A model generated the notes under the pieces. It did not search any database and was not told the DNA's origin. It worked only from the letters and a program-made list of their open reading frames with translations. The position numbers were made by a program, and so were the translations under genes. 64,000 bases of DNA from Schmidtea nova. Lineage: Eukaryota. Each line of letters begins with the position of its first letter. The stretch's first letter is position 1. Positions 9,281 through 44,236 of the stretch are shown here, piece after piece. The stretch covers positions 64,108,001 through 64,172,000 of the forward strand of contig CM097883.1 in NCBI GenBank assembly GCA_044892505.1, read 5' to 3'.

Positions 9281-9668
9281 TGCTGGTGTGTTGGTTGGAT
9301 TGACAACTGAGATCCTTAGGATTTTATATGTTAGGGTGATCTCGCCAACATAAAAACATTCCCCCGCTGACACCCATGATGTATCCCTAACTACTCATCA
9401 TGTTGGTGCTGTGTCAACGTTGTGAAATGACAAGGCAGGTGAGCAACCTTTCGGCTACTATTCCCTTGTTTATTCACGGGTCCACCACTACCGATAGAAG
9501 GTGTTTGTGGTTTTCTTTCGGTCCCACTTATGCTCTTTTCTTTTGTCCTAGGGTTGATTCGATGTTATCATATCTGCAGACTTAAAATGAACCAGGTTTT
9601 TGTTACTTTTAATTCTCATACATGCGTCAAACAAACAAGACAAATCAAAATCATTCATTTATATACAT

Positions 9669-10250
9669 TTATTTATAGTTCAACAGTACAGAGGGTCTAA
9701 TCACATTTAGTAATTCTTGCTCAGAGAGACCACTAAGCAAGTCTACCTCTATCCCTACGCGATCGGCATACGCACGTCTTTCCCTGCGCCTTTTCGCTCC
9801 CAAGCGATTCCTTCTCTTCGTTCGTTTTGAACCTGCTGGCATTGTAGCTGTCACTGCATTAACTGTAGCTTCGGTCGATGTGTTCTCCGTTTGGGTGCTC
9901 GTAGTCACCGCTATCGTGCTTATCCATCGATTAAAGGTGCTTGCTCTGATCACGGGGCGTAATTGCTCAGCGATGAAATCCTGGGTCGACACCTTCAAAT
10001 AATTGGTCAACTCCAATTTCAGGGCTGCGATTTCTCGTGCTTGTTCATCGATCGTTCGTTCCGCTCTGTATCGGGCTTGTAAGATGGCTTTAACCCTCTC
10101 AGGATTAAACCATGTTGTCTTAATTCGCTGGTGCTCCTCATTCAGTTGTCTCAAGCGACTCTCGAGGACACGAGATCGTGCTCTATGTTCGCGTGCCTCT
10201 TGCTTGTATTTTCGATTGGGATTTTCGTCCATATCTGAGTAATGTATCAT
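9669..10250 (-). CDS. LTR-encoded ORF B (193 aa): coiled coil plus basic NLS-like tract
   Basis: Long ORF with coiled-coil heptads and KRTKRRNRLGAKRRRERR. Acceptor-like TTACTCAG before MDEN; AATAAA at the stop. Confidence 0.6.
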   Translation of the reverse strand: MIHYSDMDENPNRKYKQEAREHRARSRVLESRLRQLNEEHQRIKTTWFNPERVKAILQARYRAERTIDEQAREIAALKLELTNYLKVSTQDFIAEQLRPVIRASTFNRWISTIAVTTSTQTENTSTEATVNAVTATMPAGSKRTKRRNRLGAKRRRERRAYADRVGIEVDLLSGLSEQELLNVIRPSVLLNYK

Positions 10251-10427
10251 TAACTAGGGTATATATGCATTGTTTGGTTTCTCAGTCATCATTTTATGGT
10301 TAAACAACTGCATTCCTATCCTTACTCATTCCTCATGCATCCCAAATCAAAACAAAAACCCTTTTAAATGGATACATATATTTGCAATTTACAACAGATA
10401 TTCGTTTATTGGGTGTTGTCCTCGTGA

Positions 10428-11063
10428 TCAATTGTATGGTCGTAACTCTTGGTTGGCCGGGTTCTCGTCTCGGCGAATCCCTGTTTCATGGTAGAGTTCC
10501 GGGGCTGGATTCCAACTCAGTTGGTTTTGATAAATGAACACCTCCCAGAGGCGAAGGTCTTTGGGCTCGGGGTGTTGATCCACGGAAACACTGCCTGGGG
10601 CGTTCGGGTAAACGAAGACTTCCCCAGTGTCACCACACCGAGGCCTGTCTAGCAGCAAATACCCGAGTTGGCCGAATGCCTGCCCGGTCATCATTCCGGT
10701 GCTTAGTACCCAACGGGGTTGTTGTGTTTCATCTACAAATTGATAGAACCATCTTTCGTATCCATCTTTGGTGGGGTTCGGGGAGGGCGTCCAATTTACA
10801 TCACCTTCCCACCTCAGCTGTAGTTGGAATGCACAGGCGGGAAAACTTGCCGCGGTGCTCATATGGGTCCTTGTCCATCGACGCAGGTGTCTGCGAGCGG
10901 AGTTGAAAATTTGGCGTGGGGCCTCCTTCTCTCCTTGAATTTCGGTAGGTAACTTTGGCGTGATGACGGAGCGGATGCGCCGTTTCCTCCGTAGAATGTA
11001 CTCCTCTAATTTGACGGTTAGGGGTCCTACCGGCTCCTTTATGAGATATTCTGTTTTCGTCAT
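10428..11063 (-). CDS. LTR-encoded ORF A (211 aa), unknown globular protein
   Basis: GC-rich ORF preceded by TTCCATTTCAG|AGCGAC-ATG and followed by AATAAA. Confidence 0.6.
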   Translation of the reverse strand: MTKTEYLIKEPVGPLTVKLEEYILRRKRRIRSVITPKLPTEIQGEKEAPRQIFNSARRHLRRWTRTHMSTAASFPACAFQLQLRWEGDVNWTPSPNPTKDGYERWFYQFVDETQQPRWVLSTGMMTGQAFGQLGYLLLDRPRCGDTGEVFVYPNAPGSVSVDQHPEPKDLRLWEVFIYQNQLSWNPAPELYHETGIRRDENPANQELRPYN

Positions 11064-12522
11064 GTCGCTCTGAAATGGAATTTTAGGTTAACTGACAGAC
11101 TCTATCATCGACCATCGATATTTATGTCGATCAACCTACTTGGTTTATCGTTCTATTAGCCGTAGGCCTTAGTGGTTCGCATATAATTTACTAGACCATT
11201 GATCGCGGTGTTCATGTAGGTGGTGATTTTACTTGGGTGAGTTGATTCACTCCGCAATTGCAGTTGGTTTTAGCCACGCTCATTTAGGCTTGTTATTTAC
11301 AATCATACTTTACGTTACATTAAATTTCTCATCAATCATTTTCATGCATTTAACATGGTTCATTTACAGATCATCATCAGCAACTATCAAGGTTCACGTC
11401 ACGGGGAAAATTTAGTAATCCCTTTGTCAACTACTTTGTGGAGAAATGCACTAATTTTATCTACTGTCGGGTCTGACTTTTCATGCCCTTCGTGGGTTAT
11501 AGGTATATGTCTGACAGCTCATTCGGTTCGCTACTGCCCTTAGTGCTAATGTCTTTTTGACCGCGATGTTACGCTTTACCTATCTCGATTCTCATCGACT
11601 TCTGATGTACCAGCACTCCTTGAAGGTACACTCCTTCGTCCAGATACCTCATGCATGTATCTCCCCTTGCGAAATAAGCTTTACCTTGATTTGATTTATG
11701 ACCATTAGCTGTCACTCGATACCCTATCATCATGATATAAAGTGTTGATACTAGGCCGTCTCATCCTTGATTTGGTTCATGATCATTATGGCTTATTCGA
11801 TACCCTATGTGCATTTACCCCTTCCGCTTTCCAAATATTTAGTACACTTATAGTCCCGCCGCATCAGCACCTCACAACCGAAAGATTGTGTTGCGCTGAG
11901 AGGCCCCGAGAATCCGTCAGGCTGTTAGGCCTCCGGAAAACCTTATTGATTTTATTATGGTTAACAATTAAAATTATGAGGGTTAGACACATCAATAACA
12001 TAACACCAAATTACCTTTTATTTCCTTTCCAAATTCGTTTCACAATGATCTCAGTAGTCACAAACAGTTCACACTTGGTAAAGATAACATTGTCAAATAC
12101 TGATTTTACTTCAGTATTTATACTGAACCGGTGTTGTTGGTTAGCCAATCAGCATCGAGTATGTGTGTATGTTTGCTTCATTTTTTATGTTGTCGGCTTT
12201 TTGCTGCCTAACTTAACTCGCCGATTTGTTTGGTTAATCATGCGGTAAGTTTATTTTTTGTACGATTTAATTTTTATTTGATTTTGCTTTAGGTCTTCGG
12301 TGACATCCGCCCACGCGCTGTCATATTCCAATTTTATCTGCTTCGCATGAGTGAGTTTTGAAGATTTTTGTTGTTTTGATTAATATGTTATTTCTTTTAG
12401 ATGTTGCCGCCTATTTTGTTACGCTTTGGTGTTGGTAATTTATTTTGTTGTTATTCTGTGTTTAATTTATTTTATTGATTGTACATTATTTTCAGATGCT
12501 GCTCGATTTGGCTGGCCCAACA

Positions 12523-12540
12523 TCACTCGGGGTCCCCTAA
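12523..12540 (-). promoter_or_regulatory. Atypical polypurine-tract position
   Basis: TTAGGGGACCCCGAGTGA abuts the 3-prime LTR. It is purine-rich but interrupted by CCCC. Confidence 0.45.
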
Positions 12541-12726
12541 AATTGCGTCCCGCAATTACATGCATATACTTACATCAACATACATAAAAAGTTCGTGACA
12601 GAATTCACATTCAAAACCACATAAGGTGGTAGCTGTTATACCCATTTTTACACAAAGTCACACATTGTCATTGTCATGTTTATATTGTTACACAGTTCAA
12701 TGTTTCTGGCTCATAGGGGTTGATTT

Positions 12727-13251
12727 TCAGGTCCTTTCACTGGTTGACTGCATTTCGTATCGGGCTTGGATTTGTCGTAGATGACTTCTCATTCTCTGTT
12801 GGGTTTTTGCTTCTCTTTTGGCGCATCTACACATTATCATTTGTTGTTGTTTGAGGCTTCTGATTCGGTACCGGGTATATGTGATAACGATGATCAGGAT
12901 GATTGTCATTATTGTCATTGTGACTATTCCGACGATGATCCATCTGTTTCGGATTTCGGATTCGATTTGGGTTTGACCTTTGATTGGCTTTAGGTGATCT
13001 TGAAAGGTTTTATGGATTTCTCGGATCTTCTCGATTTGATCGAATAGGGTTTGTAAGGGTTTGCGATGATCATGACTGATTCGCATTTGTCGGATTAATT
13101 GTTTCAAGTCTTCTTTGACTTCGTTTAATTGTTTTTCGATTTCTTGGGATATCTCGTTTGACAGGGTTCTTTGAATTTCGGTTGTCGAAAGGTTCATGAT
13201 TATTGCAGTTAACATAATCGTTCGGATTGATAGGATTTTGAGCCAGATCAT
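12727..13251 (-). CDS. Small type I membrane protein (174 aa)
   Basis: N-terminal hydrophobic signal-like segment, helical region, TM WIIVGIVTMTIMTIILIIVITY, basic tail. Confidence 0.7.
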   Translation of the reverse strand: MIWLKILSIRTIMLTAIIMNLSTTEIQRTLSNEISQEIEKQLNEVKEDLKQLIRQMRISHDHRKPLQTLFDQIEKIREIHKTFQDHLKPIKGQTQIESEIRNRWIIVGIVTMTIMTIILIIVITYTRYRIRSLKQQQMIMCRCAKREAKTQQRMRSHLRQIQARYEMQSTSERT

Positions 13252-13324
13252 TTCTGATTATTCTACTGATTAATACCTGTTACATCGATTTGTACATTTT
13301 TACACACGGATTTTTCGCCTCTTT

Positions 13325-14485
13325 TTACACATCCGTCTCCTCTGGTTCATGGAACCCTTCATCTTGGAGTTCCATTGGTGGTGGTGGTATAAACGGTAAC
13401 CACACCACTCTGCTTCTCCACATTGCGATTTCGTTTTGATACGTTCTCGAGGTTTGTATTTCCTCGTCTAACAGATACTCCATATAGTCTGATTGTTCGC
13501 TCAGAGTTTCGATTTGTCTTTCCATTTCTTCCACTTTTTTCTTCAGGGCTTCTGTTTCTGTTGGTTCGGTTTCTACTTCTATGGTTTCTTTCTCTGCTTT
13601 CAGGGTTATTATCTGCTGTTTCAGTTCTTCGTTTTCTTTCGTAAAATTCGTTATATTTTCCTCATACGCTTGGTTTGATTCCGCATGTCTTTCCTTCACA
13701 GCTTTCAATTCCATTTTCTTTTGGGTCACCACCCCTTGATAACCATTTACATCTCTTTCCAAGCTTTCTTTTTCCCTGATCAACTTTTGTCTTTCCGCTT
13801 CCTCTTTTTGTCTAATGCCTCGCATTTCTCCATTTATCATCTGTATTTGCCATTGCGTTTTCTTTAGTTCCTTTGCCTGTTCTCGAATAAATCGCTGTCG
13901 TTTTCGACTCCATTCTTTGTTTGCTTGTTCTTGTCGCTTTCTCTGTTCCAATTCCTCTTTCAATTCGTCTATCTCTTGATACAATTTCCAATCTTCGCTG
14001 TGTGCTGTCCTTCTGATTATCTCTTTGGCTTCTTTATACACTCGTTTCGACTCCATCTTCCAATGTCTCGCTTGAGCCTTAATTGCTAGTATTTTTACCT
14101 CCATCTTTTCCTCTTGTTTCTCCCTCTCTTCTCTTCGCATTTTCATCATGTTTTTGTAATGTTCTGCTTGTTTTCTCATCAGCTGATAGGTCTCTTCTAT
14201 CTTCTGTCGACTTCGTACATTCGTTCCTTTTAGCTTCTCTATTTGTGTTGTCAGTTGTACTATCTCTTTATTCACTTCCTCGAGTTCTAGTTGATATAAC
14301 TCCATTCGTCTCTCGCATTTTAGTTTCTCGTAGTAATTATTTGTCATTACTTCGTTTAATTCTCTGGTTCTTTGTTCTACTTCCATTTTACATCTCCTTT
14401 CGATTTCTCTTTCTATTGTTTCTTGTTCGTTCAACATCTCGCTTCTCGTTTCATCTTCGATTACATGTTCATTTGCGTTTTCCAT
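13325..14485 (-). CDS. Long coiled-coil protein (386 aa) ending FIPPPP...ETDV
   Basis: E/K/R/Q-rich heptads; preceded by TTACAG|A-ATG. Confidence 0.8.
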   Translation of the reverse strand: MENANEHVIEDETRSEMLNEQETIEREIERRCKMEVEQRTRELNEVMTNNYYEKLKCERRMELYQLELEEVNKEIVQLTTQIEKLKGTNVRSRQKIEETYQLMRKQAEHYKNMMKMRREEREKQEEKMEVKILAIKAQARHWKMESKRVYKEAKEIIRRTAHSEDWKLYQEIDELKEELEQRKRQEQANKEWSRKRQRFIREQAKELKKTQWQIQMINGEMRGIRQKEEAERQKLIREKESLERDVNGYQGVVTQKKMELKAVKERHAESNQAYEENITNFTKENEELKQQIITLKAEKETIEVETEPTETEALKKKVEEMERQIETLSEQSDYMEYLLDEEIQTSRTYQNEIAMWRSRVVWLPFIPPPPMELQDEGFHEPEETDV

Positions 14486-14574
14486 TCTGTAATTTACAAA
14501 TTTACACTTGTTATACTATACGTTTATTGTTGTTGTCGATTTTTACACTTTATTTACGGGGTCGTTCATTCCGA

Positions 14575-15987
14575 CTACTCTAACCATCCTTTCGTTGACT
14601 TCGTGTTCATCACTGTTGTACTTGCTTTCTTTTCGATCTCCAACTCTACATATAAGTTGTCGTCGTACAACATCTCCCACATTGTTTGGTGTGGTATGAA
14701 TTTTGGTTCTCCAGTCGCTAATGAACATTCTGTGGTTGGTCTTTTGTAAGCCTCGTGCTTACCATCAATTTTGAATACTCTCGCTATTGTTTCTTTCGAG
14801 TTTCTCACTCTCATTATAGCCTTTGTTTCTAGTGGCCATTCTAATATGTCGTCGTAACCACCTTTACACAACGCAAAGAATAATGACACATGCGTTTCCT
14901 TTCCTGATCCATCTCCATTTGGATAAATTCTCATCCGGACTTTGTATCCGTTTTTCCACAGATAGAATGGTGGACTTGTTACCGACACTTGACTTCCTGC
15001 TTTTGCTGCTGCGAACTTTTCGTTGAAGTTCTTGATTTTCCATACATATGGTGCAACAGGTAAACTCTCGATATCCTCTGCATCTCGCACCCACATTTGA
15101 TGTCGCACGTTTACTTCTTTTACCAATGTCTCTATGACTTTGATTTTCTCCATCATTTTCTCTCTGGTGAGCTCGAATTGCTCTCTTGTTTCTAGTAATA
15201 ACTCCGTCATTATCCTCTGAGATTCGATTTCTTTTCCCAGCTTCTGTATGGTTTGTTCCATTCCGTTCAAATTTTCTGTTAACATCTCGGCGTGTTGTAC
15301 CGTTTCCGTTTCCAAATGCTCTTTCATCTCTTTGCTCGTTTTCTTTACTGCACATCCTTGTTTACTCCATATGCACTTTCTTGGTCTTGATTCGCATTGT
15401 TCCCAATGTTCTCTCAACATCACTTTTTCTCCGGTTCCACAATTACTTGGACAAATTCCTCTGAATTTTCCGCACACTTTCTCTTCTGCTACGTTGAGAT
15501 GTTCTGTTTCGATTACTTCTCTCGTCTCTTTCTGTGCACAGTATTGACACTCTATTATCTCTGCTTTGCACTCGTCCTTGTGATTTTTCGACTGCTTGAT
15601 GGTTATTGTCTGTTGACACTTTTCACATATCGCTTTCTTGTTTTCGCATTTCCCCAGATGTTGTCTTAACTCGATTATTTGTCCCTTCCATTCACAGGGT
15701 TGGTTTATACATTCTGTTTTTATTTTCCAGATCTCCTTTTGTATTGCTTTGTCTGGTTTCGTCTCGTTGATTAGTAGTTTATCGTCACACTCTGGACACT
15801 TTCTTGTCTCACTTTCCCTGATTATTTGCAATATACACTTGATGCACATCCTGCATCCACATTCCGTTTGTCTCGGTTTTAGCAGTAGATTTTTACACTT
15901 TACACACGTCACATTTACTCCCCATTGTCGATTTTCTCTTCTTAGAATCTCGATGGTTTGGTAATCTGCTTCACTTTCTGCTCTCAT
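14575..15987 (-). CDS. TRAF: TNF receptor-associated factor (TRAF2/3/5-like), intronless
   Basis: RING (CVKC..PRQTECGCRMCIKC..CPEC), TRAF zinc fingers, coiled coil and MATH domain (YVWKIKNF..SPPFY..GYKVRMRIYPNGDG..HVSLFF..DDILEWP). Confidence 0.95.
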   Translation of the reverse strand: MRAESEADYQTIEILRRENRQWGVNVTCVKCKNLLLKPRQTECGCRMCIKCILQIIRESETRKCPECDDKLLINETKPDKAIQKEIWKIKTECINQPCEWKGQIIELRQHLGKCENKKAICEKCQQTITIKQSKNHKDECKAEIIECQYCAQKETREVIETEHLNVAEEKVCGKFRGICPSNCGTGEKVMLREHWEQCESRPRKCIWSKQGCAVKKTSKEMKEHLETETVQHAEMLTENLNGMEQTIQKLGKEIESQRIMTELLLETREQFELTREKMMEKIKVIETLVKEVNVRHQMWVRDAEDIESLPVAPYVWKIKNFNEKFAAAKAGSQVSVTSPPFYLWKNGYKVRMRIYPNGDGSGKETHVSLFFALCKGGYDDILEWPLETKAIMRVRNSKETIARVFKIDGKHEAYKRPTTECSLATGEPKFIPHQTMWEMLYDDNLYVELEIEKKASTTVMNTKSTKGWLE

Positions 15988-16077
15988 TCTACAACAATAT
16001 TTACATCAATTTCCCCGTATTTTTGATTTTTTCTGGTTCTTTATTTACACGTATTTACACAGTTTTCCGCTTATTCA

Positions 16078-16428
16078 CTATACATCCTCAGTTGAATCTG
16101 GCTCTGGATACACGTCTATCTCATTTACAATCCAGCTCGTCCAACTATCCGGTATCTCTTCTTCTTCATGTCTCGTTAATCGGTCAATTTCCTCTGCTTG
16201 CCAGTTGTTCACTTCATTCAATGTTCGGTTCTCGTTCTGTAATTCGTTTATCTGTAGTTGTTGGATCTCGATTTTGTTCATTGCTTCGAAATTACAGTTA
16301 TAACTCTCGGTTAATAATTGCGTTTTGGCCGTCAACTGGCTCTGTAATTCATTTACTGTTCTGGCTAGCAGGTCGCATTGTACTTTCCATCTCGCCATCA
16401 TCGACATCTCGATATTTTCTTGGTTCAT
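16078..16428 (-). CDS. Short coiled-coil protein (116 aa) ending EPDSTEDV
   Basis: Heptad pattern; preceded by TCTAG|AAAAACG-ATG; AATAAA downstream. Confidence 0.65.
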   Translation of the reverse strand: MNQENIEMSMMARWKVQCDLLARTVNELQSQLTAKTQLLTESYNCNFEAMNKIEIQQLQINELQNENRTLNEVNNWQAEEIDRLTRHEEEEIPDSWTSWIVNEIDVYPEPDSTEDV

Positions 16429-16551
16429 CGTTTTTCTAGATTATATACATCATTCTCTTTTTTCTGTTTTTATGTTTTATAATATTTATACCCATACGTA
16501 TACGGTTATGCATTGGTTTTTACAATATTATTTACACTCATATTCCACCCT

Positions 16552-19500
16552 CTATACAACTATTACTGGTTTTCCTTCGTACAGTTCTTCGTCCTCGATC
16601 TGTACCCACATCTCTTCATGTTTTGATCGTCTTTTCAGTTCCTCTCGTACTTCTTTTGGTAGTTTTATGTTGTAGTTCGTGACCTTTACGTCTGGCCATT
16701 TTACTGCTATGGTCTTATTTCTCATGCCATATCTCCAACATACTATCATGATCGTTATCAGTGGGATACACGCTATGAATACTCCCATGCTGATTAAACC
16801 CATTATTGTTTTCCCAATGCTCCTTCTTGGAGTCTCACTTTGGTTTATCATCACGCCATATTGACCTTTCCATTCTGCTTCCCATTGTTCATATTGTTGT
16901 TGTCTCCGTCTGACTTCTTCGATCACTTTCTCTGGTTCCCATTTTTCTTGTTGATTTGGTATTGTTTCTTCCTTCTCGTTTTGTTCTCTCTTCTGACTCA
17001 ATTCTCGGAGTTCTAACTTTTTGATTCTCCTCTTTATCGGTGTGTAGTAGGTTTCGCACCTTTCTTGTGGATTTCCTTGTGTATCCACTTCTTCGATCGC
17101 ACACACTTCGTATTCTGCGTTTGTTTTCAACCTCCTCATTTCTACCTCGATTGTTTCCTTTTTGTCATTTGATGTCTTTTGACAATTTCGTGGAGACTTT
17201 CCCATACTGTTTGGCATTAATGTCCAACAGATTTCTAGGACCTTTTTATGGATCTTCCATATTATCAGAGTCGTTGATTCCGGTTCGTTTTTTGTTGACG
17301 TCCCTTCTGTTGTCTGTTGAGTTCCTTGACTGTTGGTTGTCGTGGTTCTTCTTGACTTTCTTTTCCTTTGTTGACTTCCTCCCATTTCGATCGTTCTTGT
17401 ACCGTTAATTTGCTCTGGCGTCTTGTACAGTCTGCACTCCAGGCTTCTTTGTATTACTTCTCTTATTCTTCGGATTACGCAAATTTCGTAAGCTTGTCCG
17501 ACTTCGAATCCATTTAGTTGAAACGGGATTCCTCGTTCTCTCGTTCTGCATTGCGGTAGTACGTGACTGGTCGATATTCCGATGTATTTTCTCCAACACA
17601 TCCCAATTGTTCTCCGCCCAATGTTTTTTATCTCCACTGTTACTACTTCATTCGCAATCGTTTCTTGATCTTGTTTCTTTCTTTTTGGGAACTCAATTAT
17701 CTCCTTTGCTCGGAACACTTTACACTCGCTTGTTCCTGGTCTGTTTCCGTTTGCTGCCTTTTCCATGAGACATAGTTCACATTTTTTATCTGTCTCTATT
17801 TCTGTTATTTCGATTTCTTCATTTGTCTCTGCCTCTCGACTTTCTCTTGTTTCGCTGATTCCAATTACTTCATTGTTTCGTCCCCAACATCTTCCATTCG
17901 TTGTTCGTTGGTCTTGGATATTTACTAACGTCATCACGCTGATATCTATGTCCTCCATGATTCTCTTAATGAGGATTAATATTAATGCTACACATATCAA
18001 TTCTGGTTGGAATGTTAATTTGCCTGCTGGATTTTTGGTTATTCTTTCTTTCTCTGTTCGGTTTCTGATTCCTTCTTCTGCTTCAGATTGATTCTTCCCT
18101 TTCTCTGATTCCACTTCTGTTCTTCTCGTTGTTTCTTTGCTTCTTTTCCCAATCCATTTCTGTATTTTCAGCGCTTCCGTTGCCTTATATAATTGACATG
18201 CAGTTACTTGAGGTGCTTTTGGTTCTCCTCTCTGCTTTATTGCGCATATTATGTATGACTTTTCTTTCTCCAATCCTTTGATTTGGATGACGTCTCGCTT
18301 CAAATCTGACAATATACACTTCAACGTATCATTTTTCTTCAGGTTTTCTTTCCAGCATATTCTTTCGTATACTTCATTTCCTCTGATTATCTCTAGCGTG
18401 ACGTATTGTTTCTTGGCTTCTCCTTGTCCGATGATTGTTATCAATATCGCAATACACAACATTTCTGGTCTCAAAAGTAGACTTCCTGTTCGTTTTCCAT
18501 AGTTCGCATGTTCGTCTTTTGTTCCACTGTTTTCTCGTTCTTCGGCTTCTCCTTTCTTGTCGTTTCTTGTTGGCTTTGGTTCTTCTTGTCTTTCTTTTTC
18601 ATTATCCTCCGTTCTTTTGTTGTCACTGTCTTCGTTGTTCTCTTCGTTGTTGCTTTTGTCGTCGAAATCTCTGTAACCACCCCCTGGTCCTTTCGAAATG
18701 TCGTCCTCGACATTAATTTCTTCAATCAATTTTTCATACGCTTGAACCGCGAGTGTGCTAGACTCGAATTCCCGTATTTCCATATCTTTGGATGGTTCTA
18801 TGTCTTTTAGTCTACTTTGTTTGATCGTTTCTTTGGCATTTGCCCATTCATTCACATATTTTCTGAACAAGTCTTTCCATCTTCCCGTTCGTTCGGGTTC
18901 CTTTGGATTGTTCGTGAACTTCAAATCTCTTCTCTTTAAGAATTCTTCTACTATCTCTGGCTTTTTGTGTCTTAACAACGCGCTTCTGATACACCAATTC
19001 TGATTCTGTTCTATATGGTCATTGATCTTGAATGCCGGTTCCTTGGTGATCGGGTTCACCCATGTTAGTAATGCTCTTGTTTTCTCTATGTCGTGTATCA
19101 TTACTGTCAGACTGAAATTCTTTACGTTATTCGCCAGGTATTCGATATCTTCTTGTTTCTTGATGGACTTTATGAACTTGATCATCTCAAAGTTGTTCCA
19201 CTGTATTGCGATATCTATAATGGAATTATTCTTTCCATTTTTCCCTTCGATTTTTGCTCCTGCTTCGTATAATTCACTTAGCACTTTCAGGCTCGTCTTC
19301 TTTCTTGCTGCGATTATCATGATTGTATCTCCATTATCATCAACCGTATTCATATCTGCTTCGCACTTGATCATCGCTTTCGTTATTTCTAGCGCTTCGT
19401 TTTCTTTCTTTCGACGTAATGCCCAGTGTATCGGTAATCTCCCATCCTTTGATAAAAGGGATGCTACTGGCATTTGATTCTTGATCGTTTCTATGTCACT

Positions 19501-19755
19501 CTCGTTATAATCTCCTTGTGCGTATCTGTGCACTTTCTCTGTAATCGCTCCTAGTATCTCCAACGAGTTTTTGTTCTCTTTGAATTCCGATATTCTTTCT
19601 TGCGCTTTTGCTACGATTGCGTCTAATCTCTCTTGATATTCCGCTTTTGCATTGAACAACACTGCTTTGCTTCTTATTCGCGTTTTCATCTTTTTCATCC
19701 GTTGGTCTTGATACACTGCTTGTCTGAAGAATTGTCCATATTTCAATGCTTCCAT
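16552..19755 (-). CDS. Ankyrin-repeat / 4x FN3-like / transmembrane protein (1067 aa)
   Basis: Ankyrin motifs (DGRLPIHWAL, NGDTIMIIAA), two internal signal-like segments, four CW...L...YEIC...C..Y.TP repeats and a C-terminal TM. Confidence 0.8.
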   Translation of the reverse strand: MEALKYGQFFRQAVYQDQRMKKMKTRIRSKAVLFNAKAEYQERLDAIVAKAQERISEFKENKNSLEILGAITEKVHRYAQGDYNESDIETIKNQMPVASLLSKDGRLPIHWALRRKKENEALEITKAMIKCEADMNTVDDNGDTIMIIAARKKTSLKVLSELYEAGAKIEGKNGKNNSIIDIAIQWNNFEMIKFIKSIKKQEDIEYLANNVKNFSLTVMIHDIEKTRALLTWVNPITKEPAFKINDHIEQNQNWCIRSALLRHKKPEIVEEFLKRRDLKFTNNPKEPERTGRWKDLFRKYVNEWANAKETIKQSRLKDIEPSKDMEIREFESSTLAVQAYEKLIEEINVEDDISKGPGGGYRDFDDKSNNEENNEDSDNKRTEDNEKERQEEPKPTRNDKKGEAEERENSGTKDEHANYGKRTGSLLLRPEMLCIAILITIIGQGEAKKQYVTLEIIRGNEVYERICWKENLKKNDTLKCILSDLKRDVIQIKGLEKEKSYIICAIKQRGEPKAPQVTACQLYKATEALKIQKWIGKRSKETTRRTEVESEKGKNQSEAEEGIRNRTEKERITKNPAGKLTFQPELICVALILILIKRIMEDIDISVMTLVNIQDQRTTNGRCWGRNNEVIGISETRESREAETNEEIEITEIETDKKCELCLMEKAANGNRPGTSECKVFRAKEIIEFPKRKKQDQETIANEVVTVEIKNIGRRTIGMCWRKYIGISTSHVLPQCRTRERGIPFQLNGFEVGQAYEICVIRRIREVIQRSLECRLYKTPEQINGTRTIEMGGSQQRKRKSRRTTTTNSQGTQQTTEGTSTKNEPESTTLIIWKIHKKVLEICWTLMPNSMGKSPRNCQKTSNDKKETIEVEMRRLKTNAEYEVCAIEEVDTQGNPQERCETYYTPIKRRIKKLELRELSQKREQNEKEETIPNQQEKWEPEKVIEEVRRRQQQYEQWEAEWKGQYGVMINQSETPRRSIGKTIMGLISMGVFIACIPLITIMIVCWRYGMRNKTIAVKWPDVKVTNYNIKLPKEVREELKRRSKHEEMWVQIEDEELYEGKPVIVV

Positions 19756-19764
19756 CAGCTCTTT

Positions 19765-22700
19765 TTATCGCTTGCTTATTTCTTTGTGCTGCTTTTGGAT
19801 GTCATAGAAATGTTCGAAGCTCATATCCGGATTCCATTGTTTATCACACCATTTCTTGATTAATCCGAATAGTTCTTTCTTCCTGTCTTCCAGCTTGTAT
19901 TCTCTTGGGTTCTCGCTAACCCGTAGCGTATCTCTCGCTATTAACACTGCAAGTGTTTTTGGATCGTATGTTACTTCTAATAGATGTTTCAGTAACGCAT
20001 TTTCTCCCCTTGTGAACACTTCATTACAATCTATGACCCACGAATCTCCTTCTGGTCGTTTCCACTTTAGCAATATTCTCCAGGTTTTACTGTTATTTAC
20101 TCCGATTGCTTGTTTCATGATCGATCCTCTAGTTAGTTCATCGATTTCCCACGTGGCATTTTCCGTAATATACTTCAGTATTCGGTGATTCGCTCTGTCA
20201 ATTGCATGATTCAAGAACGTTCGTCCTTCTTTATCTTTTGCCATCCAATTCGATCTGGTGTTTCCGAATAGCTTGATTATTTCATCGTTTCTTCCATGAA
20301 TTGTCATCATCATAAGTGGAGTGATTCCTTCCCAGTTCACTTTGTCAATTTCTCCTCCACCTTCGAGTATCATCTCCACGATCTCTTTCACTTTCTCGTT
20401 TCCACCGTGCTTGATTGCGTTGTGCAACGTGGTGTTGCCGTCTTTATCCTGTAGATTTAATGTCTGAGGGATCTCCTCTAGCAGCGTTCTTGTTATTGGA
20501 TGTGCTGTTCTATCCTTAGCATACTCCATTACATTCTTTCGAACTTCTGACAGTATATTGAAATCGAACCACCATTTCCATTCTGGTATGATTTCTCTGG
20601 TCCTCTTTGCCAGTTCTTTGATGTCTATTATCTCCCTTCGGTTGTCCTCTAGACTTGTTTGCGGCTTTTGTTGTACTCGCAACATATTAATTCTCGCCGT
20701 CTGTGATCTTGTCATCACCCGTTTCTCTGGTGATAGAGTTGCTGTCTTTGGTATTTTTCTGCATCGACATGCATTCACGTATATTGGTCTTACCAATGGA
20801 TTGTTCACCAATCGTACTCTCACATTATTTTGGTTAACTGTTGTTATTTCGTATGGCCCTTTGCCTGGTCGTTGGAGTTTCTTGACTGTACCGGGTATTA
20901 TCTCTGGTGTCTCAATTATCACCCAATCTCCAACTTTTAAATCATGTGCTTTCACATTCTTTTTCTGATCATGCAGATCCTTGTAACTCTCTTGATAGAA
21001 CTTGATGTTCAGTTCCGCCGTTTTCCAGATTTCTTGCATTCTTTCTTTGAACTTCGTCACGTAATCGTCAACCTCCATGTACTGTGATAATGGTGGTTGG
21101 TATTCTAAATCGATCGGTAAGTTGCAATCTCTTCCGTACATCAGTTGGAATGGACTTAGCTTTGTTGCCGCATGTATTGACATTCTGTATGCCATTAAAC
21201 ACAAGTTGATATACTCGTCCCAGTCAGTCTGATGTTTGCTGACGTAATTTGACAACATGCGTATCAATGTTCCATTGAATCTTTCTGTTTGACCGTTCGT
21301 TTGTGGATGGTATGGGGAAGTTCGTAATTTTGCAATTCGGAAGTAATTCGTAACTTCGTCTAATATTTCACTCATGAAATTTGTTCCTTGATCCGTTAGG
21401 ATTTTCTTTGGTGTTCCGTATCTGCAGCATATCTCTTCCACCAATATTCTCGCGACTGTTTTCGCTTTTTGATCTGGCATTGCGAACGCTTCTGGGAACT
21501 TTGTTAGATAGTCCGTGACTACTAAGATATATTGATTCCCCTTTAAACTTTCCGGCAATGGTCCAACCACGTCCATTGCTATCGTTGCCATCGGTTCTGC
21601 GGGTATTGGCATTGGTTTTAGTGGTGTTTTCCACTTCGTTCCGACGTTCTTTCTTGTCGCACAAGTTATGCAGTTCTTTATCCATTCTTTCACATCGTCT
21701 TCCATGGTTGGCCAAAAATACTTTTGTCTCAATCTCCCGATGGTCTTTTTCGCTGACATATGTCCGCCTAATTTTCCGTCATGATATTGAGTCATGATTT
21801 CCTTTCGCCTATTCGCAGGTAAGCACGTCAATCTCCGTTCTCCATCTTGTATCAATAACCATCCTTTTTCCATCACATATCTATGTTGATATTTCTGCAT
21901 ATGTTCGCGCAACGTTTGGTTCTTGCCGAATATTTCCCTTTCCCTTTCTTTCAGATACTTGCTGATCAATCCCAACTCCTCATCTTCGAGTTGATCTTTC
22001 CTTAATTCGCTGAAATCCAAATCTTCCGCTATTAATGCACATATTTTTAGAGCATTCAGGTTCACCAATTCTGGAAATGTAAACCTTGACATGCAATCCG
22101 CATTTGCATTTGCTTTTCCTGCTTTAAACTTTATGAACGGCGAGTATTCCTGTAACTGCATCGCCCAACGCATCAATCTACTTGATGATTCTTTATGTTG
22201 ACCTAACCATACTAGCGGTTGATGATCCGTCGTGATATATATTTCATGACCCCACAATAGGTATTTGAAATGCTTGATTGCCAATATTATCGCATAGGCT
22301 TCTCTTTCCGTGACTGAGTAATTCCTTTCATGCTTCCTGAACGTTCGACTGTAATATCCAATTACTTTTTCCTTGCCTTCTTCGTCAAATTGGCCTAGTA
22401 CTGCTCCTGCTGCGTATCCACTTGCATCTGTTGCTAACAAAAATGGCTTCTTGAAATCTGGATGGACCAGTATTGGTGCTGTAATCAGCTTATCTCGTAA
22501 TGTTTCAAATGCTGCTTGCTGTTCTGCTCCCCACACAAACGACACGTCTTGTCTTACTAATTCTTGCATTGGCTTTGATATTCCTGCATAGTCCTTGATA
22601 AACTTTCGATAATATCCACACAATCCCAAAAATTCTTGTATTTGAGTCACTGTTTTCGGTGGTGGACATTCTTTGACTTTTTCGATATTCCTTGGATCTG

Positions 22701-25700
22701 GTTCTTTTCCTTTTGCTGATACAATGTGACCTAAGAATGTCACTTTCTCTTTTGCCCAATCGCACTTTGACGGCTTTAATTTCAGTTTCCATTGCCTTAA
22801 TTTCACGAACACATTTCTGATGTCTTGCAAGTGGTCTTCAAATGTTGCGGAGTAGATCAATAGATCGTCAATATACACCATGCATTGCTTTATGCCATGT
22901 GTTACGAAATTCATGCATCTCTGGAATGATGCTGGCGCGTTTGTTAACCCAAACGGCATTTTCTTGAATTGGTACAGATCTCGTCCGATTGTAAATGCTG
23001 TCTTCTCTTTATCCTCGTCTTTCATTTTGATCTGCCAATATCCGCTCTTTAAATCCAGTGACGTGAAATAGGCTGCTCCTTGTAACGTCAACAACATTTC
23101 GTTTATGTCTGGCAGTGGGTACGTATCTCTTTTCGTAACTGCGTTCAATCGTCTGTAATCGATACAGAATCTCTGAGTTCCATCCTTCTTTTTCACCATC
23201 ACCACCGGGAATTGCCAGGGTGAGCAACTAGGTTCGATGACCTCTGCATCTAACATCTTTTGTACCTCTTCTTCTGCCACTGCTTTTTGAGCTTCTGCCA
23301 ATTTATATGGTCGTAATGCGATTGGCGTTTCGTCCGTCAACGGTATCGTGTGCAATGTTACATCACATGTTCCTAAATCTAGATCCGATGCTGCGAATAT
23401 ATCTTTATATTCCATCAACAGTTTCTGTAACTGTTCTTTTTGTCGTTCGTCTAACAACACACTGTCGATTTTCCATGGTAACTCGTCTTTGTTTTTCTCG
23501 TTCTTGTCTGGTATTTCGATCTCGGACATGGGTGTCAATTTACCCAATCTCTCATTCTCGTATATTATCTTGTCCTCTTCGTCGAAATTTACCAGATTAA
23601 TTGGTATCTCACCTTCTTGGTTTATCGTAACCAATTCTCTTGCCATTGGTAATTCCTTCTTCGCTTCGAACTTCTTACTTGGTTCGAATACCATATCTCC
23701 CTTTATTGTTGAATCGATCTTGACATAACACATCATTTCATGTCTCGCTGGCACTACTATTTGTTCTGCACTTGCCACTTTAACTTTCATTCTGCAGATT
23801 TTTCCTGTTCTGTCTTTTAGTTTCATTGCTCCTAGATCGATTACGATTTCCTTGAACAGGTCTGGCATCAGGTCAGTTCCAATAATACATGGTACACTCA
23901 GCGATGGTATTACAGCGATGTACGTGTTGATCTCTGCACCTCGATGCTTAATTTTTACAAACCATCTTCCGGCTACTTCTACCGTCTCTTGACTGCACGC
24001 GATTACATGTACATTCGTTTTCTCAATTTCTCCTTGGTTTTTCTCTGGTATATAATTGATGTCGATTGCCGAAATATTCGCGCCTGTATCGATCATAGCT
24101 TCAATTTCTCTTCCGTTTATTTCTACGGTTGTTGTTAAAATCGGTCCCATGTTTGTGGACATAACCGCTATCGTGTGCGTGTCTTCTAACGAGTTTACGC
24201 TTCCGCCTCGTTTTACTTTGCATCCTTCTGGAATTATCGGGTATATACTTGTCATCGGCATCATCTGCATCATATTCGGCTTCGCTTTGTATATTGGTTC
24301 GTTATACATTGATTGGGGTGGAGCACTGTATCTCCAATTCTCAACTGCACTCTTTTCGTTATACTGTGGAATCTGGTTTATATTCGCTTGTCCTCCTTGG
24401 TCGTCATCGTCATCATCATTACTTGAGTCATCCTGCGTTCGATATCCCCTCACTCTTTCCCATAATCCTTTCCTTTCTTTCTTTAGTTGTCGCCTTGCTT
24501 GCTCGTCTTGCATTATCTTTTTGAATTTCCTTCCGACATCTTCGTTTGTTCCTTTCATTTTTGCGAGTATCTTCAACAATCTTTTTATTCGATGTATGTC
24601 TTTTGAGTGTCCGTGTAACACCATCGTTTTCGCAAGGAATGGTAAAAACCCTACTACCATTTTCCAATTCACTTTCTTTTCTCTCTTGTAGATATCAAAA
24701 CACGCTAACATTTGCGTTATTATCACTCTGACGATTTGTATTATCAGTATAACCCCCAGTATTCCAGCCATCATTTGTCCGAATATTAGGAATCTTCCCC
24801 ACATTGCCTTCATCATATTTTCTGTGGCTTTCTTGAAATGTGCCGGTGACAACAGCAGTTCGTAATTCGGTCCTTCTCGATAATTCGTTCCTCCCGTTAT
24901 CGTTACGATATTTGACAGTAATGCTTCTCTTCTTGCCGGGAATAATATATTCTGCCTTGCTGCTTCTAAATCTTTTGGACTATAGATTCCGTTGTTTGAG
25001 ACATCTACGTCACTGAACTGTCTATCCTTTGACAACTGCATTAGCTCAAATTCTCTTGGTGCTAATACTTCGGTTCTTCCTGGGAACATTACCCATTTGC
25101 CATCTGGTTTCTGATAAAGCGGTCCGTACGCATTACTACAGTTGAATGGATTTGGTTCAAACCCTGGTGGATTGATGATTCTCGTCACCGGTTGAACGTA
25201 TCGTACTTTTCCTTTATAATCGATTTCTAATTCATTTGTACATTGTCCAGGTTTCAACTGCGTTGTTGCTGCTAGCGATGCGTGGGTCTTTTCGCAAATG
25301 TATACGTACATTGCTTCTCCTACCACTCTTCCGAAATGTCCTTCTCTCAGTGGTAATAATGGCATTGCGCTATCTGGATTCGTAATCGCTACGGCCAACT
25401 TTGTCTTCAATATTTCTCGATTCAGTATACAATCGTTATTTATCAGATCATAGTACACTTTTTGCAATGAGGCTTGACCTCTATGGAATAAGAAATCCAT
25501 TTTATTATTCACATACAAGTGTAGCTTGATATCCATTGTGTCGATCTTGGGTTTCGCATTCGGCACTTCTTGTTTCGACACGTATATTCCTGGATAGTTT
25601 GTTTCGTATACTGTTGTACTGCACTTAAGGGTTGCTTTCCCTTTTATGAATCTCATGCCCACATCCTGATTTGTGGTTATCAACACTGTTGGTGTGGTTC

Positions 25701-28700
25701 TCATCTCTATCCGTTTTTCTCTATGATCGGGTTTCAATTGTCTTTTATTCTCTAAAGCTTCCTTGAGATGTTTTGCTCTAGCCTTGTCATCATCGTCCTC
25801 TTCTTGGAACGTTTTTCCTTGAATTTCGTCGAACTTTGCTCCTTGTAGCAGTTGTAATTGACATTCGTTCCCCTTCGGTTTGTACACCAAAGTTGACATT
25901 CCCGTTTGACACATGCTTCTGTCAATTTTACACATGGATAACGTTTTCATTTCTCCTGTTGTCGGTTCGAAGAATGCTTCGTAGCTTTTCAGTTCGACTA
26001 TATACGTATCCATTACCACTAAGTTGGTTGCAGGTACTCCGAATATTGGGTAGGTTTCTCCTTGACAATATCCTTCTCCTCCCGTAATCCGTCCTGCTAC
26101 ATAATATGTCTGCTGCAACATCATTCCTGGCTTTCCTTTTATCTTGATTTTATCTCTCGTTGTCACTTCTCCATGTTTAAACAATGCTTCGCAGTCTTCT
26201 CCTTGCAACACGATTGGTTCTCTTTCGGTTCCTGGCATGACAATTGCCGAATAATGTCCTCTCCCACAATAGAATGCGAATCTCGTCTTCTGTACCTTGC
26301 ATTCATTCACCATTGTCTTTATGAGTTCTGCCTCTTGATACACGTGGTACCATTGTTCCTTTTTGATCTCTTTTAATTCTACTGGAGTTGCATCTTTGCA
26401 TTGCTCCGTACCTCTCAATGAGTACTTTTCTCCTAACTTCATTTGATCACAATCAAATACCTCAAATGTTGTTACACCTTCCGTGCTTAACAACCATACT
26501 AACATCATCATGATTATCGAGTTTAAATTCAACGTCGATCTTCCGTTTCCTTGCATCGTTTGTCTATTCTCCATTTCTCTCAATACTCCTTCAAGTTTCT
26601 TTCTCATCACGTTTGAACCCTCTTTTGTCTGGTTCTCTTTTATGAACTTTTCCCATCCTCCTTTCCTGAGGATATATGGTTCAATTTCTTTCTCGATAAT
26701 CATCGCCGTATTTTTAATATGTCTTCCCATCGGACTTGACTTCGGGCTTCCTCGGCTTAGCGTTAACAAATTGTATATCGTATACGAGATTGCTACTAGA
26801 TATTTGCTGTCCGTTTCTGCTCCGTTTAGTAGCCTTTTTACCAACGTCGTGGTTCCTTGCCAATCTAGATGATTCGATTTTGTTTTCGCCTTGATCAGTT
26901 CTGGCATAATCGGTGCTATCGCGTTGTGTAGCATCCTTGCCTTCGTACCGGGTTCGTTTATCCGCCACAGATTCTTTAATTCTGGGTCAATTATCGCTAA
27001 TACATCCATTATCGTTTTGGTGAGCCATTCTTCTCCTTGGCAGACTTGATTCTCCTCTTTTCCTCTGATTTCTGCGATTTTATCTAATTTCTTCAAGCAA
27101 ATCTCCCATTGCTCTTGTCTCCTTTCTTCTCTTGTCTTTGGAATTGCTGTTGTTGGGTCTATCTTTGGTCTTCCTCTTGGTCGTTTTTCCATTCCGGTTC
27201 CTGTTTCTACCAATCTCGATGTTCTTCCGGTTTCTTCCGTAACATCTATTCCTTCGTTTGCTCGTTGTTCTAACCATCTTTCCATTTCTTGAGTAAACTG
27301 TGGTTGTTCTTGCTCGTCCTCCGAATCGTTTACCATTTCTATGACTACCTCCTGTTCCACTCCTTGATCGTCGATTTCTGCTGGTGACGTTATTGGCATC
27401 TCTATTATTCTGTCGAAAATATTCGCCGTTGGTTTTTGAGTCAACTTCGTTAGTTCTTCTATCGCCTCATCACTATCTGTTAGTATCTCATCCACGTCAT
27501 ACGCTTCTGGTGGTGTTCTCTCTCTCGTTTTTATTGGTGTTGTCCTTGCTTGTCCCGAACTTGTTCCTGGGGTCATTGTTGACTTCATCGGACTTGGTGT
27601 ACTCATGCTTCCTTTCGCTTTCTTTTCCTCTTTAAACTTCAGTGGTTGACCCACTATTTGTGCCACTGTTAGCGTATTCATTAGATCCAATTGCACTGGT
27701 GTCAGCCAGATTTCCAAATTGTTATCCAACGATCGTCCTTGATGTTGCAGGTGGAATGGTAGTTCGTACATCAGTTTCTCTTTAACACTTTTCACTTTTT
27801 CCGTTAGCATCACCCAAAACTCTTCTTTTCTCTGATTCGGATACATTATCCTCAAATGTATCTTCTGTGGCGTTTCCTCCGCGAATTCTCTGTTTCTCCA
27901 CTTTTTTATTACATCGTCTAGTTGCTCTGGACACCACTCGTTAACTCTCTTGTATTCTACTATCGCTTTAGCTACTTTTCTCAAGTTCGTCATGTCTTCT
28001 CCATTTGTGATTATGAATTGTGCTAAGCCTTTTATTGTTTGTCTTTTTCCCCGAGTATTTCCTCTCAACAGCTCGATCAATTCACTTGTTTTCTGTTTCT
28101 CCAATTCTGCCCATATTACTGCAGTTTCTGGTCCGTCTAAGTCCGTTGGTAATATTCTCCTTGTTACCATACATATCCGTTTCGTATTCGTTTCGTATCT
28201 GTCTTCTCCTTCCGGATCTTCTTCATACACGCCTCTTTTCACTTTCCAACATTTCTCTTTGTTATCCCATTGCTTCTCTACTGGCGTCAATCGTCGTCTG
28301 TTAAGATCCAATTCTCCCAATATTGTCTCCCATTCTGGCTTCATCTGCCAGTTCCGATAGATTTCTACTATCTGTCTCAACTTGCGCATAACGTCCTCTT
28401 GTCGTTTCTTTCTCTTTCCTTCATCTTTTGTAGTTATCCTCGGCACATCATCCATTCTGATGACGTGTATTGTCTGATAATTATCCCATATGCCGATTTT
28501 GTACGCTCGTCTTTCGTCTCGTTCGTTCAGTAGATGTTCTTTGTATTTTATAGCGATGTCATCCTCGAATTCGTCTTCTCGTTCTTGTTGTAATATCGTC
28601 TCATTGATGACATCTACTATTTCTCCCACTTTACTATCTGGTATTACCTCAATTTGTCTTGTCTCTTCGTTTGGTAATCTCACGGTAATATTCAGATCTG

Positions 28701-31443: not shown

Positions 31444-32320
31444 CCCGATTCCACTATCTTGGAATACTGTACTAGTTTTCTTTACTTCTAGTTCACCACT
31501 TGTTTCTGAATTCGACTCTTCTTCTTCGCTACTCTCTGTTTCGTTATCTCTTGATTCGCTTCTTGCTCTGTTTTCCCTGACTAGTTCACTGTCTATCGTC
31601 TCTACTTCGTTTTGTACTTCTAGATCTTCTGGGGTTTCTTCTTGATTCTCTTTATTACTCGAATTATCGCTGATCTCTACTTGTTTGTTCTTTTGTTGCT
31701 TAGGCTTGTTACCTGTTCTTGTCCTTTTTGCTGCTTTTCTTTCTGCTTCCGTTAAGATTGGTATTATACCTGATCTTGTTTCTCGTCCCTCAATTTTGTC
31801 TATTCCTCAACTTCCTATATTCTCAATTGATTTTCTACTCCGCTTTTGCTTTGCTTCTTCTTTGCTTTGTTTCCTTTGATTGCTCTGACTGCTAGATTGC
31901 TTTGGATTGCTTGATTGATTTGTTTCCTTAAAACAAATAATCACTTACACGATACGTCCCCGTTATCGTGTTTCTCGTCCCTCTCACGGGTGTAGTCATA
32001 ATTCATGAAGATCCCCATTTTTCCCATTTCCCTTGATTTTAAGTCTATTTAAATTATCTATGCAGTCGTATCAATTATCTATTCTTTATCAAATACACCA
32101 ATTACTTTTCCCCAGTTTCCCAATTACTTTGTCGCTCAGCGCTCTTATTATTCCCTTTACTTTTCTCAGGCTTCTCTGGCTCTGAGTTCAAATCTCCCCT
32201 TATCTGTCAACTACTCTATTTCCCAACTATTCGCTTTATCTCCTATTCGCACTACGTTTACAACTTCATTTCAATTCTCATCTCTACTCACCTTTAATTC
32301 AACTGACGTCTCTCGTTGGC

Positions 32321-32784: not shown

Positions 32785-33112
32785 CACCCTTCACTTACTC
32801 ACTTTACTTTATTACTCCTATGTATGCATACTTTGACGTCGTTAGGCCACATAATCAGCTTTACTCGCATTTATCAATTCCCAGGTGCGCACCTTCAACT
32901 CTCACATTATTACCTCGGTTTCTTTCAACCCTTATTCCTCATTATTCGCTATTCATTTTCACTATTCATCATTTATCCTCATTATCATTTATTCATCTCC
33001 ATTATTGCTTGTTGATCTTCACTATCCGGATAGTTTTATACGTAATTTAGTCCTCATCTGCCTCACTTCGTCGTCTTTCTCGTGGGCTTTTACTCAATAT
33101 TTTATTTCGAAC

Positions 33113-44195: not shown

Positions 44196-44236
<41 letters not shown>

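Follow-up and report, generated by a model that had tools for sequence, protein, structure and literature searches.

The locus described here raises the question of which protein is encoded by an open reading frame (ORF) of 1,067 amino acids (aa) at positions 16552..19755 on the minus strand of a 64,000-nucleotide stretch of the Schmidtea nova genome (GenBank assembly GCA_044892505.1, contig CM097883.1, positions 64,108,001 to 64,172,000; the whole stretch is called the window below). The initial annotation, made from the letters alone, had read it as a receptor-mimicking polyprotein of its own, in which an ankyrin block is followed by repeats resembling fibronectin type III (FN3) domains and by a membrane anchor. 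According to our analysis, the ORF almost certainly encodes the C-terminal end of the Gag-Env-Pol polyprotein found in a gypsy element of the Burro type. From the final 636 residues we predict a type I membrane glycoprotein, the second of the element in addition to the envelope protein (Env), made up of a signal, four FN3-like domains, a stalk, an anchor and a tail.

The end of a Burro-type polyprotein

The ORF lies within a 29,353-bp Ty3/gypsy long terminal repeat (LTR) element of the Burro type on the same strand, which ends in TG...CA and is bounded by the 4-bp target-site duplication GAAG at 9277-9280 and 38634-38637. Its two LTRs of 3,242 bp each are 100% identical, with 0 mismatches, which indicates that this copy inserted recently. 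Upstream and in the same frame, an ORF of 3,892 aa (ORF1) encodes Gag, CCHC knuckles, a Monjiviricetes-type fusion glycoprotein (Env), protease, reverse transcriptase, RNase H, integrase and ankyrins. The Env match to Pfam family PF24664 (polyprotein aa 1912-2253, E 2.8e-68) is placed before the protease, in frame between Gag and Pol, and Env has an internal signal-like segment at aa 1642 and a transmembrane segment at about aa 2224-2242. Behind the integrase stand two ankyrin modules in tandem that align with each other over about 300 aa. The ankyrin block noted earlier is thus present in the 1,067-aa ORF (Pfam repeats at aa 104-197, Ank_2 E 2.7e-12), but as the second of these modules and on the predicted cytosolic side of what follows. 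It is succeeded by a hydrophobic segment (H1), four repeats (R1 to R4), a stalk, a transmembrane helix and a tail of 60 aa. A TRAF ORF and three further ORFs lie downstream, and by Pfam the cargo of the element comprises the two ankyrin blocks and the TRAF ORF. The main parts of the element are as follows.

9281..38633, minus: Burro-type Ty3/gypsy element (LTRs, TG...CA ends, target-site duplication, domain order)
35392..38633, minus: 5' LTR, 3,242 bp (identical to 3' LTR)
9281..12522, minus: 3' LTR (LTR pair comparison)
19765..31443, minus: upstream polyprotein part, 3,892 aa, Gag to first ankyrin module (ORF and Pfam)
24685..26520, minus: Env, aa 1642-2253 (signal-like segment to end of PF24664 match)
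20158..20469, minus: first ankyrin block, ORF1 aa 3659-3762 (Pfam; aligns with second module)
19765..19767, minus: in-frame stop, private to the window copy (comparison with other copies)
16552..19755, minus: 1,067-aa ORF (P0001), polyprotein C-terminus (ORF, frame comparison)
18721..19755, minus: second ankyrin module, aa 1-345, predicted cytosolic (Pfam, alignment)

The two ORFs are parted by the in-frame stop and three codons, and the frames add up to 5,084 codons (4,013 + 1 + 1,070). The stop falls between the two ankyrin modules. The frame is longer in 42/42 other scored copies and measures 5,079-5,090 aa in 14 of 43. At the codon in question the stop is absent from all 19 other loci, the 1,500 nt upstream being stop-free in 17 of the 19; the 22-mer that bears it occurs a single time genome-wide, and at this position every covering contig from four public runs differs from the window copy. 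A stand-alone gene is rejected in view of the longer frames in other copies, of the single in-frame stop that separates the ORF from the Gag-Env-Pol frame, and of the uniqueness of that stop in the genome. In the window copy itself, the stop would keep the module from being made within the polyprotein. Despite the identical LTRs, about 30 listed positions inside the element also differ from all contigs of the four runs; with at most about 11 changes expected since insertion, most of these differences must predate it.

Repeats very probably derived from fibronectin type III domains

Behind the second ankyrin module, the ORF is organized as listed here.

18481..18720, minus: acidic low-complexity linker, aa 346-425 (translation, copy alignment)
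18415..18462, minus: H1, predicted internal signal peptide, aa 432-447 (hydrophobicity, sister families)
18175..18414, minus: R1, FN3-like, four Cys, aa 448-527 (weak model, repeat alignment)
18001..18174, minus: variable linker with sequons N555 and N565 (copy alignment)
17962..18000, minus: H2, 11 uncharged residues, the third a Cys, before Lys-Arg (duplication from H1)
17701..17955, minus: R2, most divergent repeat, aa 601-685 (repeat alignment)
17410..17661, minus: R3, modelled six-stranded FN3-like sandwich, aa 699-782 (structure model)
17287..17409, minus: basic and Thr-rich linker with sequon N784 (copy alignment)
17032..17286, minus: R4, FN3-like, four Cys, aa 824-908 (weak model, repeat alignment)
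16810..17031, minus: predicted helical stalk with conserved sequon N971 (model, copy alignment)
16735..16809, minus: transmembrane segment, aa 983-1007, then basic residues (hydrophobicity)
16555..16734, minus: conserved 60-aa tail, predicted cytosolic, with hydrophobic C-terminus (alignment between families)

R1 to R4 are related to one another, with z values of 4.0-8.9 against 1,000 shuffles in 6/6 pairs and no more than 4 shuffles scoring as high. The unit of linker, hydrophobic segment and repeat arose by tandem duplication (z 11.6), so that the two hydrophobic segments, H1 and H2, are indeed duplicates as had been proposed. The likeness of the repeats to FN3 beta-sandwiches also held in structure models. 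R3 was modelled with a predicted local distance difference test score (pLDDT) of 83.8 and six strands of at least 3 residues, and 4/5 models had pLDDT of at least 78. In the VIA fold search, R3 gave a top Z of 7.9, aligning 76 residues to an sDscam FNIII domain at a root-mean-square deviation of 2.8, and 50/50 rows were FN3-bearing chains, by title or by the known nature of the molecule. Foldseek returned mostly FN3 chains in its best rows (E 0.02-0.1, TM about 0.5-0.6), with none at E 0.001, and the weak models of R1 and R4 likewise show six strands. An FN3-like fold is therefore predicted well for R3 and weakly for R1 and R4.

Profile searches agree with the models. A cross-family repeat profile run against the PDB gave six matches, all of them tenascin, Tie2 or contactin (contactin-4), at E 0.6-1.9. 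Against 1.84 billion proteins the repeat profile found 16 matches, 14 of which carry Pfam fn3; the best (E 2.9e-8) is among the two that do not. Leads from the ESM Atlas were FN3 clusters for R3-R4 (0.84-0.86) and single-pass proteins for stalk, anchor and tail (0.78-0.83). FN3 domains usually have seven strands and are marked by a Trp in the second strand and a Tyr corner of the type Leu-x5-Tyr. The second-strand Trp is invariant in 23/23 aligned repeats, and the corner Tyr is found in R1, R3 and R4 and varies in R2. Four Cys are kept in R1, R3 and R4; R2 is without the Cys that the others have in the third strand, and in the window family most copies of R2 have gained another, which blurs the Cys count.

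Several results weigh against this assignment. The Foldseek rows are weak taken alone, the VIA Z stays below 8 throughout, where according to the tool scores may reflect a common arrangement, and a model spanning the entire module came out poorly (pLDDT 40.8; strands of R1, R3 and R4 at about 50-68, R2 unmodelled). The best Pfam fn3 match to single repeats (E 0.0051; matches in 4/35 and 2/23 repeats) is below the curated cut-off, and the whole 1,067-aa ORF has no Pfam fn3 match. PDB profile searches with the first two alignments gave 0 matches, and the BFVD fold search gave none at E 0.001. For R4, Pfam gave a sub-threshold MIT_ATG1 match (E 0.0008), which was set aside because it conflicts with the all-beta model. 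Taken together, we consider the repeats very probably FN3-derived, shortened and Cys-rich, though outside Pfam fn3 membership.

With the FN3 domains of animal proteins (fibronectin, tenascin, Dscam, NCAM, LAR, Tie2, PTPRQ-like) the repeats share the beta-sandwich, the second-strand Trp and the Tyr corner. They differ from them in their length of about 80 residues, six modelled strands and four Cys each, in identities of 5-19%, in scores below the Pfam cut-off, and in that no single donor family stands out. The host genome yielded no donor either: over 49 loci around host fn3 matches (30 of the 108 matches taken as loci, plus 19 further stretches) the repeat profile reached 8.2 bits, against 8.8 bits on reversed sequence. 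A four-family profile reached 11.7 bits on the host fn3 loci and 3.7 on reversed sequence, a result that is FN3-like, with no donor emerging. The proposed likeness to LRR-Ig-FN3 receptors is not supported, as 0/16 profile matches had an LRR_8/Ig/FN3 Pfam layout, no such receptor having been compared directly. One profile match carries a BspA-type LRR_5, and a weak Fn3_ELFN label occurs among 18.

Conservation in four families

The window family contains at least 150 copies of repeat 4 (150/150 scored, 903 candidates), and purifying selection acts on the module. In a comparison of 20 young copies, the dN/dS calculated on shared changes was 0-0.26 in each of the 15 sub-regions. These copies were chosen by protein score, which biases dN low and counts against the estimate; against two older copies not so chosen, dN/dS is 0.08-0.30. 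Between families, pN is smaller than pS in every region.

The module is also retained, within the Pol frame and with 38-42% identity, in three sister families (B, loci L096-L099 and L109; C, locus L102; D, loci L105-L107 and L112-L115). Between families, tail identity is 43-53%, and both an acidic stretch and a hydrophobic C-terminus are conserved. At the family C locus (L102:3084-3134), about 990 Pol codons have been lost in frame, and the whole C-terminal module is still open. In family D, whose frames reach 5,687 aa, the cassette occurs twice in frame, giving seven repeats in total, in the order signal-R1-H2-R2-R3-R4-stalk-anchor, an 80-aa linker, then signal-R1-H2-R2-R3-stalk-anchor-tail. 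The new signal-like segment stands after the first anchor, and each of the two anchors has basic residues behind it. The tail is complete in the last cassette only, the first having lost most of it.

Beyond the host genome, no Burro relative was found at E of at most 1e-10 among 1.84 billion representatives, and a set of 5.8 billion proteins held no homologue at 30-585, 586-1,868 or 1,130-3,225 aa.

Predicted topology

The hydrophobic segments of the ORF are H1 (aa 432-442), H2 (aa 586-596) and a run of 25 uncharged residues at aa 983-1007. As the initial annotation had it, H1 behaves like an internal signal peptide. Basic residues precede it, and positions -3 and -1 of the likely cut hold small residues in all four families (GEA, TQG, CEA, SQG) despite sequence change. 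A splice acceptor of its own, with a start at Met432 in H1 or at H2, was considered and rejected, the AG having been lost by silent change in 8/20 and 4/20 young copies, respectively. Because the AG is not kept and Met432 itself is replaced by Leu or Val in the sister families, H1 reads as an internal signal and not as a start. The last segment, 22-25 uncharged residues followed by basic ones, is the transmembrane anchor that had been expected. The ORF thus has the sequence features of a type I membrane glycoprotein, that is, a signal-like segment, sequons, Cys, and one anchor with basic residues.

The course of the chain between H1 and the anchor depends on H2. In 9/9 sequences this segment consists of 11 uncharged residues, the third being Cys, and (K/R)R(I/L) comes next. 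The earlier suggestion that H2 is a second signal freeing a secreted FN3 unit is not borne out. None of the nine sequences has a standard signal-peptidase site there, the segment is short, and both of its flanks appear luminal, leaving a non-standard cut as the only possible one; H2 is likely not a second signal. Sequons stand on both sides of it (N555 and N565 in 31/34 copies each, N784 in 34/35, N971 in 34/38), and all four families have the one behind R4 and the one in the stalk. In addition, the two cassettes of family D share one orientation only if H2 makes no net crossing, which supports luminal flanks. Because sequons flank H2, R3 and R4 keep four Cys as R1 does, and the family D duplication fits, R1 to R4 and the stalk probably form one luminal ectodomain. 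H2 may be tied to R2 through its Cys, since H2 has an invariant Cys and R2 lacks a Cys at one of the four usual positions.

This topology has points against it. H2 is very hydrophobic, being the most hydrophobic 11-mer of the ORF (Kyte-Doolittle value 3.79), and the Lys-Arg behind it is as in stop-transfer segments. The signal-like segment of the second family D cassette has Glu at -3 of its likely cut, like H2, and so departs from the -3 rule as well; this weakens the case made against H2 from positions -3 and -1, which is not decisive. Finally, the sequon behind R4, present in 17/18 old copies, is found in 7/20 young ones and absent from 13/20, the window copy included.

Proposed mechanism and role

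We posit that the polyprotein would enter the membrane of the endoplasmic reticulum (ER) twice over, for Env and then for the FN3 module. After the cytosolic Pol and ankyrin parts, H1 would return the chain to the ER, and signal peptidase would cut behind it. R1 to R4 and the stalk would be glycosylated and disulfide-bonded in the lumen, with H2 remaining on the luminal side, until the last helix stops transfer and leaves the tail in the cytosol. The product would then travel as a type I glycoprotein. The module would be made one-to-one with the structural proteins and be as abundant as these, because it lies in the Gag/Env frame; TRAF and the neighbouring ORFs, by contrast, are encoded separately and preceded by conserved AG sites.

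In our tentative overall reading, this product is a second surface glycoprotein beside Env that serves the attachment of particles or producer cells to other cells. Attachment as its main role is itself a tentative assignment. The ectodomain appears to be kept on its own account, because family D keeps a cassette with most of its tail gone, and the basic and Thr-rich linkers would fit surface adhesion. The tail speaks against attachment, as it is as conserved as the best repeats, and so does the other cargo (TRAF, ankyrin), which is of the signalling type.

These same points favour a rather doubtful alternative, which we rank close behind attachment because of the strong conservation of the tail. 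The same protein, in the same topology, could act on the host as a receptor mimic, soaking up ligand or recruiting cytosolic partners via the tail, with TRAF and ankyrins damping immune or death signalling. Such a decoy would agree with the single-pass receptor architecture, with the acidic stretch and hydrophobic C-terminus conserved in the tail between families, and with the TRAF ORF just downstream of the module in all families examined. In its published description, Burro cargo is moreover related to apoptosis and ubiquitin (PMC6431247). The retention of the family D cassette without most of its tail argues against it, and no host receptor stands out as donor or target. The tail holds a PxExxE match, which we take to be a TRAF6-type motif, but it is not kept in older copies or sister families and was dropped as a candidate. 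A complex prediction of the tail with the MATH domain of the element, run without alignments, scored 0.01, which counts neither for nor against a decoy. The EELYEG word to which the initial annotation had drawn attention is present at aa 1056-1061 and its Tyr is kept in 36/37 copies of the family and older relatives; in one sister-family copy, however, the Tyr is replaced, which also counts against a decoy acting through it.

A further explanation, somewhat unlikely in our view, concerns processing and is compatible with either attachment or a decoy role. H2 might dip into the luminal leaflet, where a non-standard signal-peptidase cut would free R1 as a peripheral or secreted product and leave R2-R4 anchored. 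The derivation of H2 from the signal-like H1 would suit such a cut, as would its constancy at exactly 11 uncharged residues with (K/R)R(I/L) and the Gly found six residues behind it in 8 sister-family sequences. There is also a precedent in pestiviruses, in which signal peptidase separates Erns from E1 at an amphipathic helix and part of the Erns is secreted (PMC3937272, PMC8002126). In what these sources describe, Erns-E1-E2 likewise comprises several glycoproteins cut by signal peptidase, one of them at a non-spanning segment, which makes it an analogy for H2; there is, however, no homology, and the Erns anchor is a long amphipathic helix as against the 11 residues of H2. The Gly is lost in nearly all window-family copies, the residue at -3 of the proposed H2 site is charged, and the invariant H2 Cys together with the odd R2 Cys count of the sister families would point to a tie between H2 and R2.

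It is quite improbable that H2 is a true stop-transfer segment, with R1 as a small type I protein, R2-R4 cytosolic and the tail luminal, or that both topologies co-exist. The hydrophobicity of H2, the Glu before and Lys-Arg after it, and the richness in basic residues of the linkers around R3 would fit such a crossing. Yet 11 residues are short for it when the anchors have 22-25, R3 and R4 keep the four Cys of R1, all four families share the sequon behind R4 and that in the stalk, and in family D basic residues are found after each anchor as well as before the signal of the second cassette. Least of all do we expect that the module is a decaying passenger or the ORF a separately expressed gene: the window copy does have a stop before the module and identical LTRs, and a YAG-A(A)-ATG pattern precedes Met432 as in three accessory ORFs, but decay is refuted by the purifying selection in every sub-region, four families retain the module, no second instance of the stop exists in the genome, neither Met432 nor the AG before it is conserved, and the same pattern stands at 6/168 in-frame Met codons. 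No well-supported joint was found in the contigs from the four public runs, the kind of data in these runs being unknown.

Relation to known elements and viruses

Burro1-4/GYPSM1 of Schmidtea mediterranea and a Burro-like element of Dugesia tigrina have been described as giant gypsy-like elements (PMC6431247). Silencing of smedwi-2 by RNAi is reported to raise the level of BURRO1 RNA (PMC8532177). As far as that description goes, they share with the window element a size of about 30 kb, long LTRs and one polyprotein of about 5,000 aa, and Burro has in common with it Gag, CCHC knuckles, a mononegavirus-like Env between Gag and Pol, the PR-RT-RH-IN order (protease, reverse transcriptase, RNase H, integrase) and ankyrins (PMC6431247). 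The D. tigrina element also has TRAF/MATH in an accessory ORF, which is called upstream there and lies downstream here (PMC6431247). Its ORF1 of 5,140 aa (PMC6431247) equals in length the stop-to-stop frames of a sister family here (23 of the 150 rows listed), the two being set side by side by length alone.

In the Burro account the word 'fibronectin' has 0 occurrences and no second membrane protein is named (PMC6431247), whereas the window element has both FN3-like repeats and a second predicted membrane protein. The D. tigrina element was run through HHpred, so the corresponding region may have been examined and left unnamed. In the literature checked, which did not include Grohme 2018, Jurka 2007 or the Repbase entry, we found no account of FN3 or of a second membrane protein in gypsy elements, Burro included. 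The Burro class, Env, ankyrins and TRAF are already known, and the FN3 membrane module appears to be new relative to the accounts read.

A similar combination of parts occurs in the planarian secretory cell nidovirus, whose giant polyprotein is described as having ankyrins, fibronectin-named domains, a Thr-rich region and predicted signal-peptidase processing (PMC6211748). A role in shedding or transmission was also proposed in that account (PMC6211748). The nidovirus is, however, an unrelated RNA virus, and its domains are of fibronectin type II, another fold (PMC6211748).

Accessory ORFs and other parts of the element

Four accessory ORFs follow the polyprotein.

16078..16428, minus: accessory ORF, 116 aa, after conserved YAG (ORF list, copies)
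14575..15987, minus: accessory TRAF ORF, 470 aa, with RING, zinc finger and MATH (Pfam)
13325..14485, minus: accessory ORF, 386 aa, coiled-coil-like by eye (ORF list)
12727..13251, minus: accessory ORF, 174 aa, with hydrophobic segment (ORF list)

Their starts (16428, 15987, 14485 and 13251, minus strand) are preceded by spacers of 73-123 nt, with a YAG close before each start and repeated TGTAAA words within the spacers. The AG is kept before the 116-aa ORF in 35/35 and before the TRAF ORF in 34/34 copies, and the arrangement would fit a resolution of these ORFs by splicing.

Within the polyprotein, the conserved word STLAVQAY lies at P0001 aa 334-341 (about 18733-18756), between the second ankyrin module and the acidic linker. 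It resembles words before the protease and inside Gag and is a candidate protease site, at which cleavage would free the ankyrins. The word (R/K)-I-(N/C)-(M/V/A) occurs 6 times in ORF1 and is absent from the 1,067-aa ORF. By eye, stretches like two ubiquitin-like domains and a BCL2-like region, such as have been published for Burro, can be discerned in ORF1 at 27619-28746 and 26569-27126; the Pfam and PDB sequence search did not confirm them. No BIR was found with Pfam, and BCL2-, SUMO- and dUTPase-like parts stay candidate stretches without a Pfam or PDB sequence match, the published detection having used HHpred.

A primer-binding-site-like stretch lies directly behind the 5' LTR (35373-35391, minus strand), which we take to resemble a tRNA-Pro site. 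The leader between the 5' LTR and Gag (32311-33657) contains tandem repeats (a 19-bp unit x12 and an 86-bp unit). Each LTR holds two ORFs of 193 and 211 aa (9669-10250 and 10428-11063; 35780-36361 and 36539-37174) with no Pfam match at cut-off. Outside the element, inverted repeats of about 500 bp pair 722-1364 with 2927-3526 and 43665-44198 with 54877-55428; they are possibly DNA-transposon ends.

Implications for Burro elements and their planarian hosts

With the module, a predicted second membrane protein takes up the C-terminal eighth, so far without annotation, of the largest known retrotransposon polyprotein. Adhesion domains of the host type would here have been acquired by an LTR element and then multiplied within it. 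Speculatively, and with considerable doubt, Burro elements may be enveloped retroelements with a two-glycoprotein coat, in which a captured mononegavirus-type fusogen and a dedicated attachment protein made of captured, shortened and disulfide-stapled FN3 domains come from the same Gag-Env-Pol polyprotein and the attachment cassette goes on duplicating in tandem (from four to seven repeats). The published idea of Burro elements as proviruses with an extracellular phase would thereby gain strength. An FN3 surface protein under selection, present in hundreds of copies and four families, may offer a handle on cell exit or on the reshaping of the surface of planarian cells.

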